The notes: generated from the letters alone by a model not told the origin. A DNA stretch of 64,000 nt from Eledone cirrhosa (GCA_964016885.1 OZ024741.1:166160001-166224000), one strand, 5' to 3'. Numbered from the stretch's first letter, positions 35,514 to 60,125 are shown. Numbers and translations are program-made.

Positions 35514-35558
35514 AATATTGCTGATGAGATGTAACAACATCGAAACTAGTCCAATATT
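35514..35558 (+). ncRNA. Minimal type I hammerhead ribozyme
   Basis: aatattg-CTGATGA-gatgt(aaca)acatc-GAAA-cta-GTC-caatatt: full core, 7-bp stem I, 5-bp stem II, palindromic ACTAGT stem III, GUC site. Confidence 0.9.
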
Positions 35559-35805
35559 CCTTGTCTGGCTTTCTGGAGAATAGAGGAAAGGTGTTTCCTC
35601 GAAAACCAGTATGACTCTAAAAACCGGTTTGTCTGTGTGTTTACATACAGAATAGCTGGACACTCACAGTAAAGTGTCCAGTGAAAAACTCGGTACATCT
35701 ACATATGTACACATGTGTGTATTCATATGCATACTAGTATTTCAGTATACATATGTGGATGTACATTTTTAACTTAATTATATATATATACTGTATATAT
35801 ATATA

Positions 35806-36773
35806 TATATTAGAAAGATCGAGTATCGAAAAAACGGCGCACGAGTTCACGATAAACGAGATTCGACATGAGCGGCAGAGGGCTCAATAATTCAGATGAA
35901 TCAGAGCTATAACTATCGTTAAAATACCGTCACATATAGAACAAGTCTACAATCAACCATACGATATAAAATCGATAAAGGAAGATTCGGGACAAACAGA
36001 TAAAAAATATCAATAAAACAATACGTCAATAATTTAAATGAATGTAAAATCATACCCGGACCCACTAGACAGGTGTTAAATCTAGCTTCATGGGTTTCTG
36101 TAAATCCTTAGACTGTACTCTATCAGCTCACATATAAATATAAAAGCCTACTAGAGCAAGCGGAACGGAGTTTTACTTTCTCAACGAGTTTTTTTCCTGG
36201 CGGTAGAGGAGCCAACTACCAGTGAAAAACGCACATGGCATTAGACAAGGGAGATAACCCCTATATCCGCGAAAACAATTCGAGTGAATGTGGAAATACA
36301 CATATCGAATTAGAGTGCTCAATAGACATGTTAAAATAAAACAAAAGCTATTCATCACTCAATAGAATCGACAAAAAATGAACAATAAAATTAACTGGTG
36401 GATAGCTATGTCCAGAGCTAAATATATTAGAAAGATCGAGTATCGAAAAAACGGCGCACGAGTTCACGATAAACGAGATTCGACATGAGCGGCAGAGGGC
36501 TCAATAATTCAGATGAATCAGAGCTATAACTATCGTTAAAATACCGTCACATATAGAACAAGTCTACAATCAACCATACGATATAAAATCGATAAAGGAA
36601 GATTCGGGACAAACAGATAAAAAATATCAATAAAACAATACGTCAATAATTTAAATGAATGTAAAATCATACCCGGACCCACTAGACAGGTGTTAAATCT
36701 AGCTTCATGGGTTTCTGTAAATCCTTAGACTGTACTCTATCAGCTCACATATAAATATAAAAGCCTACTAGAG
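35806..36773. repeat. 617-bp-period partial tandem: two apparently identical ~350-bp direct repeats, TA-flanked
   Basis: 35806-36155 matches 36423-36773. Confidence 0.9.
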
Positions 36774-36782
36774 TATATATAT

Positions 36783-37310
36783 ATTTGAAAAAAAGGAAAA
36801 GAATGACTTCACTTGTAGTGTTAAAAAATATTTTGATTTAATTTTATAATATAATATTATGAGTTCGTAGATCCAGTAAGTTCTTTGTTAACTTCGGTGG
36901 GAAGAATTTTAGAGATTCCTGATTAACTTGGGCTGGACAACTTTCTCGCATTCCTCTGTCTGTGGCGATTGTCAAACTGAGATCAGGTTGTGTTGAAATG
37001 TGTGACTATATATAAGAGAGAGATTTGGATGTGTCTGCGGTGTGGCGTGTGGTGTTAATGAGTGTTGATGATGATGAAGGTCCGGAGGAATTAAAGCACA
37101 CACACACACACACACACACACACACACACACACACACACACACACACACACACACACACACACACATACATATATATATACACTCAGAAAATGGTGAGGT
37201 TGCAAGATAAGGGTGTTTGAGAAGGTGGTTGTAAACATACTCTCCTGCCGGTTTTATTTCATTAGCTGACCTACTACAAGTGAAGTCATTCTTTTCCCTT
37301 TTTCAAATAT
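36783..37310. repeat. Short TA-flanked element with ~36-bp terminal inverted repeats
   Basis: tttgaaaaaaaggaaaagaatgacttcacttgtagt versus its reverse complement at 37273-37310. Confidence 0.75.
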
Positions 37311-37422
37311 ACCTAACTGTATCAAGGATCTCACACATTTTCCAATATATATATATATATATATATTTCGTTTCTGAATTTGTTTAGCAAGATTCTTTAT
37401 CTGAAATCGTGTGTTGAAACCG

Positions 37423-37719
37423 ATATTGTTATACTTTGGGAGGGTCATGTTGCCAATAAGAAACACACGCACCAGTTGCTTTCACTTCAATTTATTATAA
37501 TAAATTTATAAATTTAGGAATTTATAAATTTCTGGTTGGTTGGTTGGTTCCACAATCAGATGGTTGTTTATATATTGTCAACATATATAAACAACCATCT
37601 GGTTGTGGAACCAACCAACCAACCAGAAATTTATAAATTTATTATAATAAATTGAAGTGAAAGCAACTGGTGCGTGTGTTTCTTATTGGCAACATGACCC
37701 TCCCAAAGTATAACAATAT
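37423..37719. repeat. Near-perfect fold-back palindrome (~140-bp arms)
   Basis: 37423-37573 is the reverse complement of 37583-37719 apart from a short internal duplication. Confidence 0.9.
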
Positions 37720-39354
37720 ATATATACACGATACAGCAGTACATGTAAGTTAGAGTAACCGGGGGAGAGGGAGGAGTTAATACAGAGACCGGACATAAGT
37801 CCTGAACCCGTACTAACAGCACGAGGGACAGAAAAAAAACGTCTGATCATAGCTAGAACAGGCGCAAAGAAGTAGAGACAACGAAATGAACACACACACA
37901 CACATTCACATACACACACACATATATATATATATATATATGCATATATATATATATATATATATATATATATACATATACATATGTATGTATATGTATA
38001 CATATGTATATATATATATATATATATATATATTATATATATATATATATATAATATGTATACATATGTATACATATACATATATACATATATATATATA
38101 TACATATATATTATATATATGTATATATATATACATATATATTATATATATATGTATATATATATACATATATAAATGTATATGTATATATATATATATA
38201 TATATATATATATATATATATATATATATATATATACACACACACACACACACATATATATATATATATATATATATCACTCACGATTACCTATTTGCTC
38301 TCACCTCTCTCTGCCTCTTCTTCGCCTCTGCTTCGCTTTATCTCCTTTTCCCCACCTTTCCAAAAACGTAATCTCTACCCATGAAAACCTATGTTTTGGC
38401 ACGTACTTAGTATTTATGTTTTATTAATTATAACTGACATTTCTTGAAGCTACAACAGAAATCGTGTTGTTGTTGTCTTTATTGTTGATAGAGTAAAGTA
38501 AGGTAATGGTGGTTGGAGAGTTATGATTGAGATGGCGGTTGTAATGATGGTGCTGGGCTGAGGGGGATGTTGGTGATGACTGGTAGTGGTAACGGTGGCG
38601 TTTATGATGAGGGGGTTTATAATATTAAATGATAAAGATGGTGGAGAATAATAAAGGATGATAACTATAATGATATTAACTGAAGAAGAAGAAGAAGAAG
38701 TAGAAGAAGAAGAAAGAAAGAAAGAATGATGATGATGATGATGATGATGATGATGATGAAGAAAGAATGATGATGATGAAGAAGAAAGAATGATGATCAT
38801 GATGATGATGATGATGATGATCAAGAAGAAGAAGAAGAAGAAGAAGAAGAAGAAGAAATATGAATGACTTATTTAGTCTAAATATGTTGATATAGACTTT
38901 CCAGCTATCCAGGTTACTTAACTAAAATGACGAATATAATTGAATTAAGCTGTTTTACGTTCTTTTATTAATCCCCCCTCTCCCCTTCTCTCTCATACCC
39001 TTTCCTTTTCGTTCACATATCTGTACAACTCAGTACACACACACACAAACACACACACACACGCATATATATATACACATGCATACATGAATGAGATATG
39101 TAAAATAATTTGACTTTGTTATCATTGTTAAATAAAATTAATTTTATTCTGAGTTAACATTCTATTGGTTTTTTTCCCTGGATTACATAAAATCTGTGGA
39201 TAAAATTTCTGTCTTGACTTTTTTTGAATTGAGATTGAATTATTTTCCCATATCTTACGTTAAATATTTTCCATCTTGACGTAATAGTCACTTATATGTA
39301 TGAATTACTTTTGGCTTCTTGCTCACATTAATTTCTCTATTTTCATTTATATAT

Positions 39355-58350: not shown

Positions 58351-58579
58351 TATATATATATATATATATATATATATATATATTTATATATATTTATTTA
58401 TTTATACCGGGTTCAATCGGGGGCAACCACAGTAAGCCAGGTACTCAATACATAGCAGAGTGTAACTATTTAATATAGAAATGGCTTCTACAGGACTAGA
58501 ACTGGGGAATCTCGTCAGAAGGCTCTTCTCGCAGTTTGTGATTTGAACTCGGGAATTTTACATTCTCCGAGCGAGAAGA

Positions 58580-58663
58580 GCCTTCTGACGAGATTACCCT
58601 TCTCAATGGAAATCCGCTTGGATTATCTGTTTATTTTGGGATTCGAAACTACGCGGTAAAGGC
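58580..58663 (+). ncRNA. Type I hammerhead ribozyme
   Basis: gcctt-CTGACGA-gattaccc...gggattc-GAAA-ctacgcg-GTA-aaggc. Confidence 0.82.
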
Positions 58664-58790
58664 ACATATAGTAAGTACAGCGAACCTTTTAAAATTTATT
58701 TTAAAACTTTCTTTCTATTTGCTAGACCTTGATTTTATATATATATATATATGTATATATATATATATATATATATATATATATATATAT

Positions 58791-59175
58791 ATAAGATCAA
58801 AAGATGGTTAAAAGAGTTCCATGTATTTTATTATGCGCATTTCAAAAACAAATATCATCATGCGATGACATTTGCGTTTTCGTCAGATAAAATAGGGAGA
58901 CATGATATGAAGGTTAAAAAACACTTGTGAATAGTGCAGTTTTAAATCAACATATTTAAATCAACATATTTTAAATCAACATATTTAAATCAACATATTT
59001 TAAATCAACATAATGTTGATTTAAAACTGCACTATTCACAAGTGTTTTTTAACCTTCATATTATGTCTCCCTATTTTATCTGACGAAAACGCAAATGTCA
59101 TCGCATGATGATATTTGTTTTTGAAATGCGCATAATAAAATACATGGAACTCTTTTAACCATCTTTTGATCTTAT
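58791..59175. repeat. ~160-bp inverted repeat with a hammerhead in each arm and five central 14-15-nt tandem repeats
   Basis: tattttat-CTGACGA-aaacgcaaatgtcatc(gcat)gatgatatttgttttt-GAAA-tgcgca-ta-ataaaata at 59072-59142 (+) and 58824-58894 (-); (ttaaatcaacatat) x5 at 58942-59011. Confidence 0.9.
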
Positions 59176-59497
59176 ATATTTATACTCCAGTCCTACAAAC
59201 TGTAGAGTGCTACTTATCCGATATCTGCATTGCTTTATTGTACTACAATAAAACTCACCTCCTACATATATATCTATATATATATATATATATATATATA
59301 GAGAGAGAGAGAGAGAGAGAGAGATGTATACGTGTGTGTGTGTGTGTGTGTGTGTGTGTGTGTGTGTGATGTTATGTAATGTGATAGCACCGTAACTCTT
59401 GTTGGAGTCATAAGGGCGCTATATACGGTGTTTCTTGGGCATTTTAAGCCTGACGGAGGCCATCCCCCTCTTTCTTCACACACACACGCACATCGAC

Positions 59498-59642
59498 AGT
59501 CGATTGACTTTCGTCAAATCGGACCGAGGAAACAATGTTTCCGTTGGTCTTTCCTATTGCTAATACTATCTATTGGTCGCAACTCCAGGTAGAAGGAGCA
59601 ACGTGAAATAAATAAAGAAATAAAGTTCAAGGACATAACACA
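59498..59642 (-). mobile_element. SINE family 2 fragment
   Basis: Matches 41246-41385. Confidence 0.75.
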
Positions 59643-59665
59643 TGGCCTGGTCCAGGACTTTCCTT

Positions 59666-60125
59666 ATGCATATTTCATTTTTTCCATTTATCGTTTTCGG
59701 CGCGCCCGGCCGATTAACTCACTCGATATGCAAATTAGGCTGCTCAGCCGTTAATATGCATAAGGAAAGTATATACTTTCAAACGTTCAATCATCTGGCA
59801 GGAAGGTATACGGTGCTGACGATAGCTAATAAGCTTGAAACTAGTACATTGTTCCTTTGTCAGTGTTGAACAAAAGGGCAACGATGGTTGCTAAACACTG
59901 TACGGCTTACTTCGGGATGTTTGTTTACAAACACACCGAGCATTATAATAAATTTTCGGTAAATGCTTACGTACATATATATATATATGTGTGCAAGTAT
60001 GTATATATACATACTACTGTACGTCTGTATACATATATGTATGTACGTATACATACTTATATTTAAGTAACAGCCTTACTAAGAGTGAGAAATTAAATTT
60101 CGTTGTTTCAGTTTTTTCCATTTAT
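59666..60125 (+). mobile_element. Second copy of the 448-bp hammerhead element (hammerhead 59810-59852)
   Basis: Reverse complement of 39355-39820; cggtg-CTGACGA-tagctaataagctt-GAAA-cta-GTA-cattg. Confidence 0.78.

Follow-up and report, generated by a model that had tools for sequence, protein, structure and literature searches.

In a stretch of 64,000 nt from the Eledone cirrhosa genome (GCA_964016885.1 OZ024741.1:166160001-166224000, hereafter the window), hammerhead ribozyme (HHR) motifs follow each other between about 35 and 60 kb. An earlier note on this DNA regarded them as a dense cluster of Penelope-dependent ribozyme elements which could cleave host transcripts. This raises the questions where so many ribozymes come from, if they form a special locus and how they might be transcribed. 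The answer which we consider likely is that HHRs of Penelope-like elements (PLEs) and of small retrozymes are inserted at (TA)n tracts genome-wide, and that one retrozyme group carries boxes of host small nuclear RNA (snRNA) genes that would drive its own transcription.

Hammerhead motifs in the window

The window is AT-rich and contains about 21 TA tracts per 10 kb, equal to the genome sample described below. A type I HHR motif is present at all 17 positions listed previously (about 15 motifs plus two more, coordinates corresponding to stem I ends), and an 18th was added at 46087-46166 on the minus strand, which has a 7-bp stem III. The core CUGANGA/GAAA/UH or its U3-A8 covariant is found in 16 of the 18 motifs, three of them (42307, 46653, 48717) with U17; 13 of 18 combine an intact core with A17 or C17. 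These 13 include 40086, which had been called degenerate and has instead a U3-A8 covariant core and a near-palindromic stem III. The same label was appropriate for 50709, which is decayed by two core changes. The other exception, 54417, has a U4C core that is fixed in its family (18/20 loci, its own locus counted), and most copies of this family run into (TA)n. U4C occurs in a viroid and shows reduced activity in vitro (PMC3088659). Further HHR families with U4C cores, 20-85-nt stem II inserts and one common stem III palindrome are missed by standard descriptors. The 18 motifs derive from 16 insertions, 41854/42068 and 58824/59072 being inverted duplicates; 39639 and 59810 belong to a single family. 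The motifs and their elements are listed here, except for the unit around 59810, which is given with its boxes below.

35480..35778, plus strand: retrozyme monomer of the 465-bp tandem type, 5'-truncated, between (TA)n tracts, without promoter boxes (8 matches)
35514..35558, plus strand: type I HHR, intact core, palindromic stem III, GUC site, predicted cut after 35551
about 35487-35581, plus strand: extended helix I of the 35514 HHR (fold z -5.6)
39356..39895, minus strand: 446-bp retrozyme, ~1.2 units, upstream box at 39764 with one change
39639..39681, minus strand: type I HHR, intact core, GUA site
40085..40129, plus strand: HHR, U3-A8 core, near-palindromic stem III, GUC site; its element (39988-40287) has inverted ends
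41038..41098, plus strand: HHR of the most abundant family (18/102 sampled matches)
41813..42174, no single strand: perfect inverted duplication around (TA)n with HHRs 41854-41919 (minus) and 42068-42133 (plus), 41038 superfamily
42249..45627, minus strand: decayed PLE with Hydra-type marks (DKT motif, endonuclease without CxxC); 3' pseudo-long terminal repeat (pLTR) from 42249
45547-45627: inverted partial pLTR of the same PLE
42307..42400, minus strand: HHR of this PLE's pLTR, long stem II insert, weak stem I, U17
46087..46166, minus strand: HHR, looped 7-bp stem III, imperfect stem II, predicted monomer fold (z -3.2)
46653..46688, minus strand: minimal HHR, 2-nt stem III insert, U17 common to its relatives
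48420..48474, minus strand: HHR with inverted truncated partner (48370-48570)
48717..48754, plus strand: canonical-size HHR, 3-bp stem I, U17 (RF00163, 29.1 bits)
50709..50744, plus strand: decayed HHR, two core changes, within inverted repeat 50454-50958
54306..57520, minus strand: decayed full-length PLE (reverse transcriptase, RT, plus C-terminal GIY-YIG) between (AT)n tracts
54306-54388 / 57430-57512: direct repeat of the same PLE
54418..54452, minus strand: minimal HHR in its 3' pLTR, U4C core (the motif at 54417)
57589..58348, minus strand: ~700-bp element, 56-bp terminal direct repeat, no open reading frame (ORF) seen, probably non-autonomous
57890..57974, minus strand: HHR with GUC site, intact core and long stem II; stem III contains a 10-nt palindromic insert
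58580..58663, plus strand: HHR, intact core, long imperfect stem II
58794..59172, no single strand: two truncated pLTRs of a Hydra-type PLE in inverted orientation; HHRs 58824-58894 (minus) and 59072-59142 (plus)

Chance matches in AT-rich repetitive DNA have a negligible probability as an explanation. What might speak for them is that several single-strand folds are not better than those of shuffled sequences (57890 z -1.1, 54417 z -0.2, 42068 z +0.6). The folds are mixed, those of 35514 (z -5.6) and 46160 (the 46087-46166 motif, z -3.2) being strong. Weak folds are expected if stem III forms only in dimers; in modelled self-dimers, the stem III palindromes of 59072, 57890 and 48420 are predicted to pair. 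The shuffle control proposed in the earlier note was run on 35-60 kb. A strict descriptor found 7 matches compared to a mean of 0.015 (maximum 1) in 200 local dinucleotide shuffles. A refined descriptor, which misses 8 of the 18 window HHRs (read by eye), found 10 compared to 0.17 in six shuffles. The intact core was matched 86 times, whereas 18 single-change cores combined yielded 6 matches, the same as the shuffled total of 6. In the 41038 superfamily, the only one for which covariation was computed, 94% of the stem cells in 27 BLAST-gathered copies are paired and 9 pairs show compensatory changes. This paired-cell count was reached in 0/500 shuffles; related sequences may beat such shuffles without any structure, but slid controls fall to 35-56%. 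Thus, three helices closed by stem I are present, and the chance reading is already refuted. Two Rfam matches are below the gathering score: HH9 at 35503-35574 (38.9 bits, E 2.5e-6) and Hammerhead_1 (RF00163) at 48714-48758 (29.1 bits).

In the same superfamily, a C-C mismatch in stem II (alignment columns 25 and 49) is invariant in 27/27 copies while its neighbours covary, which makes it a candidate tertiary or protein contact. Core words at 53204 (53204-53260) and 34392 were left out of the count; they have no good stem I, and no relatives were seen. Rfam microRNA matches in the window were dropped, as they score below the gathering threshold and are placed on hairpins or TA tracts. A near-perfect hairpin of ~300 bp at 37423-37719 draws such sub-threshold matches.

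Carriers and genome-wide load

Two sources of HHRs were traced, the pLTRs of PLEs and tandem retrozymes without long terminal repeats (non-LTR retrozymes). Both end in (TA)n. Two window HHRs are located in pLTRs of PLE remnants (42249-45627 and 54306-57520). The latter unites RT (RVT_1, E 1e-12) and a GIY-YIG domain, matched weakly (E 4e-4) and below the curated cut-off; the 54418 HHR lies 411 nt behind the endonuclease of this broken element bounded by (AT)n. A 624-codon open copy is present elsewhere in the genome (locus L145). A long copy of the 59072 family at another locus (L143) has the order (TA)n, inverted HHR, RT, endonuclease, HHR, (TA)n. It shares the Hydra marks (DKT, CxCX5C linker, no CCHH, (TA)n target) with 42249-45627, where the linker is degenerate. 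An HHR-containing pLTR with a partial tandem and an inverted 5' copy was traced in three families only (42307, 54417 and 59072). Several window HHR elements are 5'-truncated ends of 3-4-kb PLEs, so that the former name 'mini-elements' does not fit them. We infer that PLEs, using RT and GIY-YIG endonuclease, mobilise these sequences at TA tracts, leaving mostly 5'-truncated copies, often with an inverted partner. The proposed Penelope link is supported by the pLTR positions and the flanks of L143; for most families the autonomous partner is putative. A third PLE-type RT remnant extends from 62887 to 64000 and over L009:1-604. It has an insertion of ~25 amino acids (aa) in the fingers region, and from this motif we take it to be possibly Naiad-like.

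The 35514 and 39639/59810 families are homologous non-coding units of 465 and 446 bp, which align along the unit. Both occur as head-to-tail repeats with one type I HHR per unit, and the window copies are monomers. Tandem copies were found at 3/8 loci of the 35514 family (spacing 465-477) and 3/20 loci of the 39639/59810 family, often with an inverted junction; other window families had none (59072, 0/20 loci; 57890, 0/14, where the anchor matched only 8/14). Circular monomers are predicted to be strongly paired (z -5 to -11). In these families helix I is extended and internally looped, so that 'minimal', as the ribozymes had been termed, is not an apt description. Contigs from three sequencing runs over 59640-59960, for which contigs only were used, show many variant retrozyme copies. 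The small non-coding retrozymes likely depend on PLEs. Upstream of the HHR in two ORF-less families (57589-58348 and 39988-40287), CCAAT-like words occur, in the former together with an E-box; judged by these words, they are possibly ordinary RNA polymerase II (Pol II) promoters.

Is the window special? To put it into context, 105 stretches of 10 kb (1.05 Mb) were sampled at round coordinates from 22 large contigs, a sample that is not strictly random or length-proportional. The refined descriptor identified 102 intact-core HHRs, compared to 1, 2 and 2 in three shuffles. Extrapolation to the 3.0-Gb genome yields about 291,000 copies (bootstrap 208,000-382,000), probably an underestimate because the descriptor missed 8 of the 18 window HHRs. 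Counts are clumped: 62 of the 105 stretches have none, some reach 5-7, and 7 is the count of one. The window is ~4-fold denser than the genome mean and belongs to the upper ~2% tail (three random stretches reach 10 with probability 0.02). With ~1 HHR per 10 kb genome-wide, a special local cluster was rejected, and the cluster that had been emphasised is ordinary for this genome. Two other earlier proposals are borne out by the sample. Many distinct families exist, as the 112 motifs from sample and window form 30 clusters, and TA targeting is apparent from (TA)5+ within 300 nt downstream of 88/102 HHRs compared to 24% of random points. Among the 102, 59 stand alone, 27 are accompanied on the opposite strand only and 16 have a partner on the same strand. 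No relatives of the 46087-46166 HHR were found in the 1.05 Mb.

It is very unlikely that the host has selected these ribozymes as a cluster for cleaving or regulating one of its transcripts that overlaps them. The ~4-fold density could be read in this way, but sampled 10-kb stretches reach 5-7 HHRs, too. At 1 per 10 kb many copies must fall in introns somewhere, and 46160 is predicted to fold as a monomer. Against this stands that motifs lie on both strands and that inverted pairs would form hairpins burying the ribozyme: read-through RNA would pair it with the antisense arm, which disfavours cleavage of host transcripts by such pairs. Among 123 of 286 candidate ORFs scanned in the window plus a total of 120 kb flanking it, no host exon was found; the matches were RT, zf-RVT, helix-turn-helix and two C2H2, none of them in 30-64 kb. 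Private mutations are not depleted in the cores (13/1009 versus 95/5391 in flanks, p 0.35; ten families, low power), so that host selection on the cores was rejected. Since core and flank mutations are equally frequent, the copies look young and neutrally decaying, with the same low power. A GC-richer stretch at 51700-51790 with an ATG and a GT donor-like end resembles a first coding exon; no homolog of its frame (51704-51850) and, for 51360-52000, no RNA run was found.

snRNA-type boxes within the retrozymes

Aligning the two retrozyme families revealed a conserved TATGCAAATTAG and a TATA box upstream of the ribozyme. Altogether, five HHR families (35514, 39639/59810 and three others) carry TATGCAAATNAG 43-46 nt before TATA, just upstream of the ribozyme; three were found by the ribozyme descriptor and two through the box. 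They share one layout: the upstream box, then a YCAS box at +16, TATA between +43 and +46, and position 3 of the core between +89 and +101. Of the window copies, 59810 has the full set of boxes (59727, 59743, 59770), 39639 differs by one change, and in 35514 they are lost by truncation. The unit at 59810 comprises:

59673..60122, plus strand: retrozyme monomer of the 446-bp family, predicted promoter intact
59727..59738, plus strand: TATGCAAATTAG box, identical to the -78 box of a host U6 gene
59743..59748, plus strand: CTCAGC, like the -57 box of host U1/U2/U5, 27 nt to TATA in both
59770..59776, plus strand: TATA box (host TATA at -30), inferred start near A59800, where extended helix I begins
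59810..59852, plus strand: type I HHR, intact core, GUA site, predicted cut after 59846

The host's own genes provide the comparison. TATG(C/G)(A/T)AAT(T/G)AG is located at -77 to -79 in five loci of RNA polymerase III (Pol III) genes (three U6, U6atac and RNase MRP), which have TATA at about -30. It is absent within 300 nt in 15/15 upstream regions of U1/U2/U5, where an NTCAGT-like box at -56 to -59 precedes a TATA-like stretch by about 27 nt (15 regions). Both gene classes thus have a TATA-like element at about -30 and class-specific upstream boxes. The retrozymes combine upstream boxes of host snRNA genes with a TATA box, and the spacing is conserved; the layout is a hybrid corresponding exactly to no single host class. 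None of 14 dispersed U6/U6atac copies has the upstream box within 115 nt. Six dispersed U6/U6atac copies begin at or near (TA)n and one of them (L202) abuts an inverted promoter-retrozyme fragment; the PLE machinery may also copy snRNAs.

Does this layout constitute a promoter? Across the five families, identity is 93% in the upstream box and 70% in YCAS, compared to 29% for the spacer and 25% for the sequence upstream. The 1.05 Mb contain 18 box matches, of which 10 precede an HHR core (background 1.9%), 5 belong to decayed or related elements by eye and 3 are unrelated. A matrix of the host U1/U2/U5 box peaks at +16, out of 120 offsets, in 4/5 families (null fractions 1e-5, 0.003, 0.006 and 0.038). 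Host spacing places the predicted start near A59800, at the beginning of extended helix I and 47 nt upstream of the cut; it would fall at helix I in each promoter family. These observations suggest an internal snRNA-type promoter that is predicted to survive retrotransposition.

The following route can be envisaged. Transcription would start ~30 nt after TATA, right at helix I, and continue beyond the unit into the neighbouring repeat. By pairing through palindromic stem III, two ribozymes would release a unit-length RNA, which would circularise and be reverse-transcribed at TA tracts by PLE proteins. The boxes, being located within the unit and upstream of the next ribozyme, would be copied into RNA and kept after reinsertion, so that the usual loss of an upstream promoter would be avoided. 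Most solo copies would be inert and decay neutrally. On balance, we lean towards a captured host snRNA promoter inside the repeat, with cutting and circularisation carrying an otherwise external promoter through the RNA stage and intact copies being self-sufficient.

That the same elements have no working promoter, the boxes being a relic or a protein-binding site and the RNA arising by read-through, appears rather unlikely. According to a 2020 review, retrozymes seem to lack promoters and obtain their RNA by read-through (PMC7761336). The octamer-like word is AT-rich, and it is placed 4-5 nt closer to TATA than in most host Pol III genes (43-46 nt versus 47-48 in four loci; 45 or 49 in the fifth, depending on the TATA read). 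On the other hand, the boxes persist while spacers diverge to 29% identity, 15/18 genomic box matches belong to HHR elements and the predicted start coincides with helix I in each family. A literature search on retrozyme promoters, the proximal sequence element and mollusc U6 promoters, with most subscription papers outside its reach, found none.

As the enzyme, Pol II is reasonably favoured because the boxes are spaced as in U1/U2/U5 and two T5 runs occur in the 465-bp unit. Those runs would stop Pol III before the promoter is copied, and the +16 box with its 27 nt to TATA is also of the U1/U2/U5 type. Transcription by Pol III, as for U6, is therefore doubtful, even though the upstream box was found in host Pol III genes only (5 loci, 0/15 Pol II upstream regions) and the 446-bp unit has only one T4 run.

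Several points weigh against retrozymes that drive their own transcription and against PLEs as general carriers. Transcription, start site, cleavage and circles are predictions from sequence. The hybrid layout matches no host gene examined, and the shorter distance from box to TATA counts here, too. The box occurs within 130 nt upstream of only 7/102 sampled HHRs and upstream of none in large non-promoter families (0/18, 0/14, 0/8). Its identity is circular for the two families found through it, C at box position 10 was permitted only after viewing one family, and a single origin of the five families is possible. The matrix of Pol II genes does not work for the 35514 family (null fraction 0.21), and its result for 39639 is weak (0.038). 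One U6 array copy (L152), which has a repeat upstream, is devoid of the box, and the 14 dispersed copies were called retroposed by eye. As for the ribozymes, stem II of the 39639 family is closed by a U-U pair and U17 is found in 17/102 sampled HHRs. For most families no autonomous PLE was found upstream (e.g. 2/27, 0/7, 0/6), so the partner is putative. Moreover, the HHR of an Anolis PLE needed protein for cleavage when tested and could be dispensed with for insertion in vitro; its cleavage site coincided with no RNA-seq read ends (PMC11167929).

Neighbouring repeats, known systems and significance

The remaining part of the window is repetitive as well. Four near-identical L1/Tx1-type long interspersed element (LINE) units of ~6.05 kb form a head-to-tail array at 1-22900 without hammerheads; their ORF1 encodes about 700 aa and ORF2 about 1200 aa with endonuclease, RT and zf-RVT. 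A diverged inverted LINE copy is located at about 23600-29600, adjacent minisatellite arrays with units of 48, 26, 38 and 27 bp at 30400-34300 and an exact direct duplication of 347 bp at 35810-36156/36427-36773.

Dispersed heterogeneous PLE hammerheads and retrozymes have already been published, and the arrangement in E. cirrhosa fits that picture. The HHRs in the pLTRs of PLEs (Cervera and De la Pena, 2014, PMC4209133) likewise comprise many heterogeneous, mostly solo families per genome, opposite-strand pairs 100-700 bp apart, palindromic helix III, the U3-A8 variant and a dimer model. Unlike them, the HHRs considered here have stem II inserts of up to 50-80 nt and one autonomous family with a fixed U4C core. 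Their number differs, too: about 2,000-9,000 minimal HHRs per genome were published (PMC4209133), >6,000 for a coral and as many as 120,000 for axolotl, the largest animal retrozyme count found (PMC7229834), and 235 Rfam hammerhead matches in the giant squid (PMC6962438), compared to ~290,000 HHRs here with other methods and descriptors. A literature search found no survey of octopus or cephalopod hammerheads; most subscription papers were outside it.

Animal non-LTR retrozymes (PMC7229834; bioRxiv 10.64898/2026.07.22.740005) are also AT-rich and non-coding; they form tandem repeats in which each unit measures a few hundred bp and contains a single type I HHR, and they share a strongly self-paired predicted circle, many monomers and a proposed PLE dependence. 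In contrast to them, the present units show inverted junctions, TA targeting and internal snRNA-type boxes; the word 'promoter' is absent from the accessible text of the preprint. PLEs of the Hydra clade (Craig et al., 2021, PMC8557442) share the C-terminal endonuclease, DKT, CxCX5C linker, HHR in the pLTR and (TA)n insertion; our elements were assigned to them by motifs only, without a tree, and the window copies are broken. PMC6765202, PMC6155905 and PMC8490949 served as background only.

Hammerhead repeats with internal promoters have precedents: newt satellite 2 has an snRNA-type Pol II promoter (Coats, Zhang and Epstein, 1994, as cited in PMC2220036) and schistosome Sm-alpha a Pol III promoter (as cited in PMC2220036). 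The retrozymes share with satellite 2 the combination of hammerhead repeat and, as predicted here, internal snRNA-type promoter. They differ by lineage, by boxes that match their own host's snRNA genes and mix those of Pol III and Pol II genes, and by their five families. What appears to be new are the genome-wide load and the host-matching promoter boxes.

The class-specific host boxes are directly useful for the design of U6 expression cassettes in the E. cirrhosa lineage. With about 100 hammerheads per Mb, distributed over at least 30 families whose stem III palindromes differ, the genome represents a natural library for dimer specificity, which also covers U4C, U3-A8 and U17 variants. How retrozymes are transcribed is open in the literature, and the predicted boxes, start (near 59800) and cut (after 59846) provide precise targets. 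If the proposed promoter is real, promoter families would make up about an eighth of the ~290,000 HHRs, and competition for snRNA transcription factors could result. Confirmation would make the snRNA-type promoter a solution that hammerhead repeats use repeatedly, from newts to the E. cirrhosa lineage.

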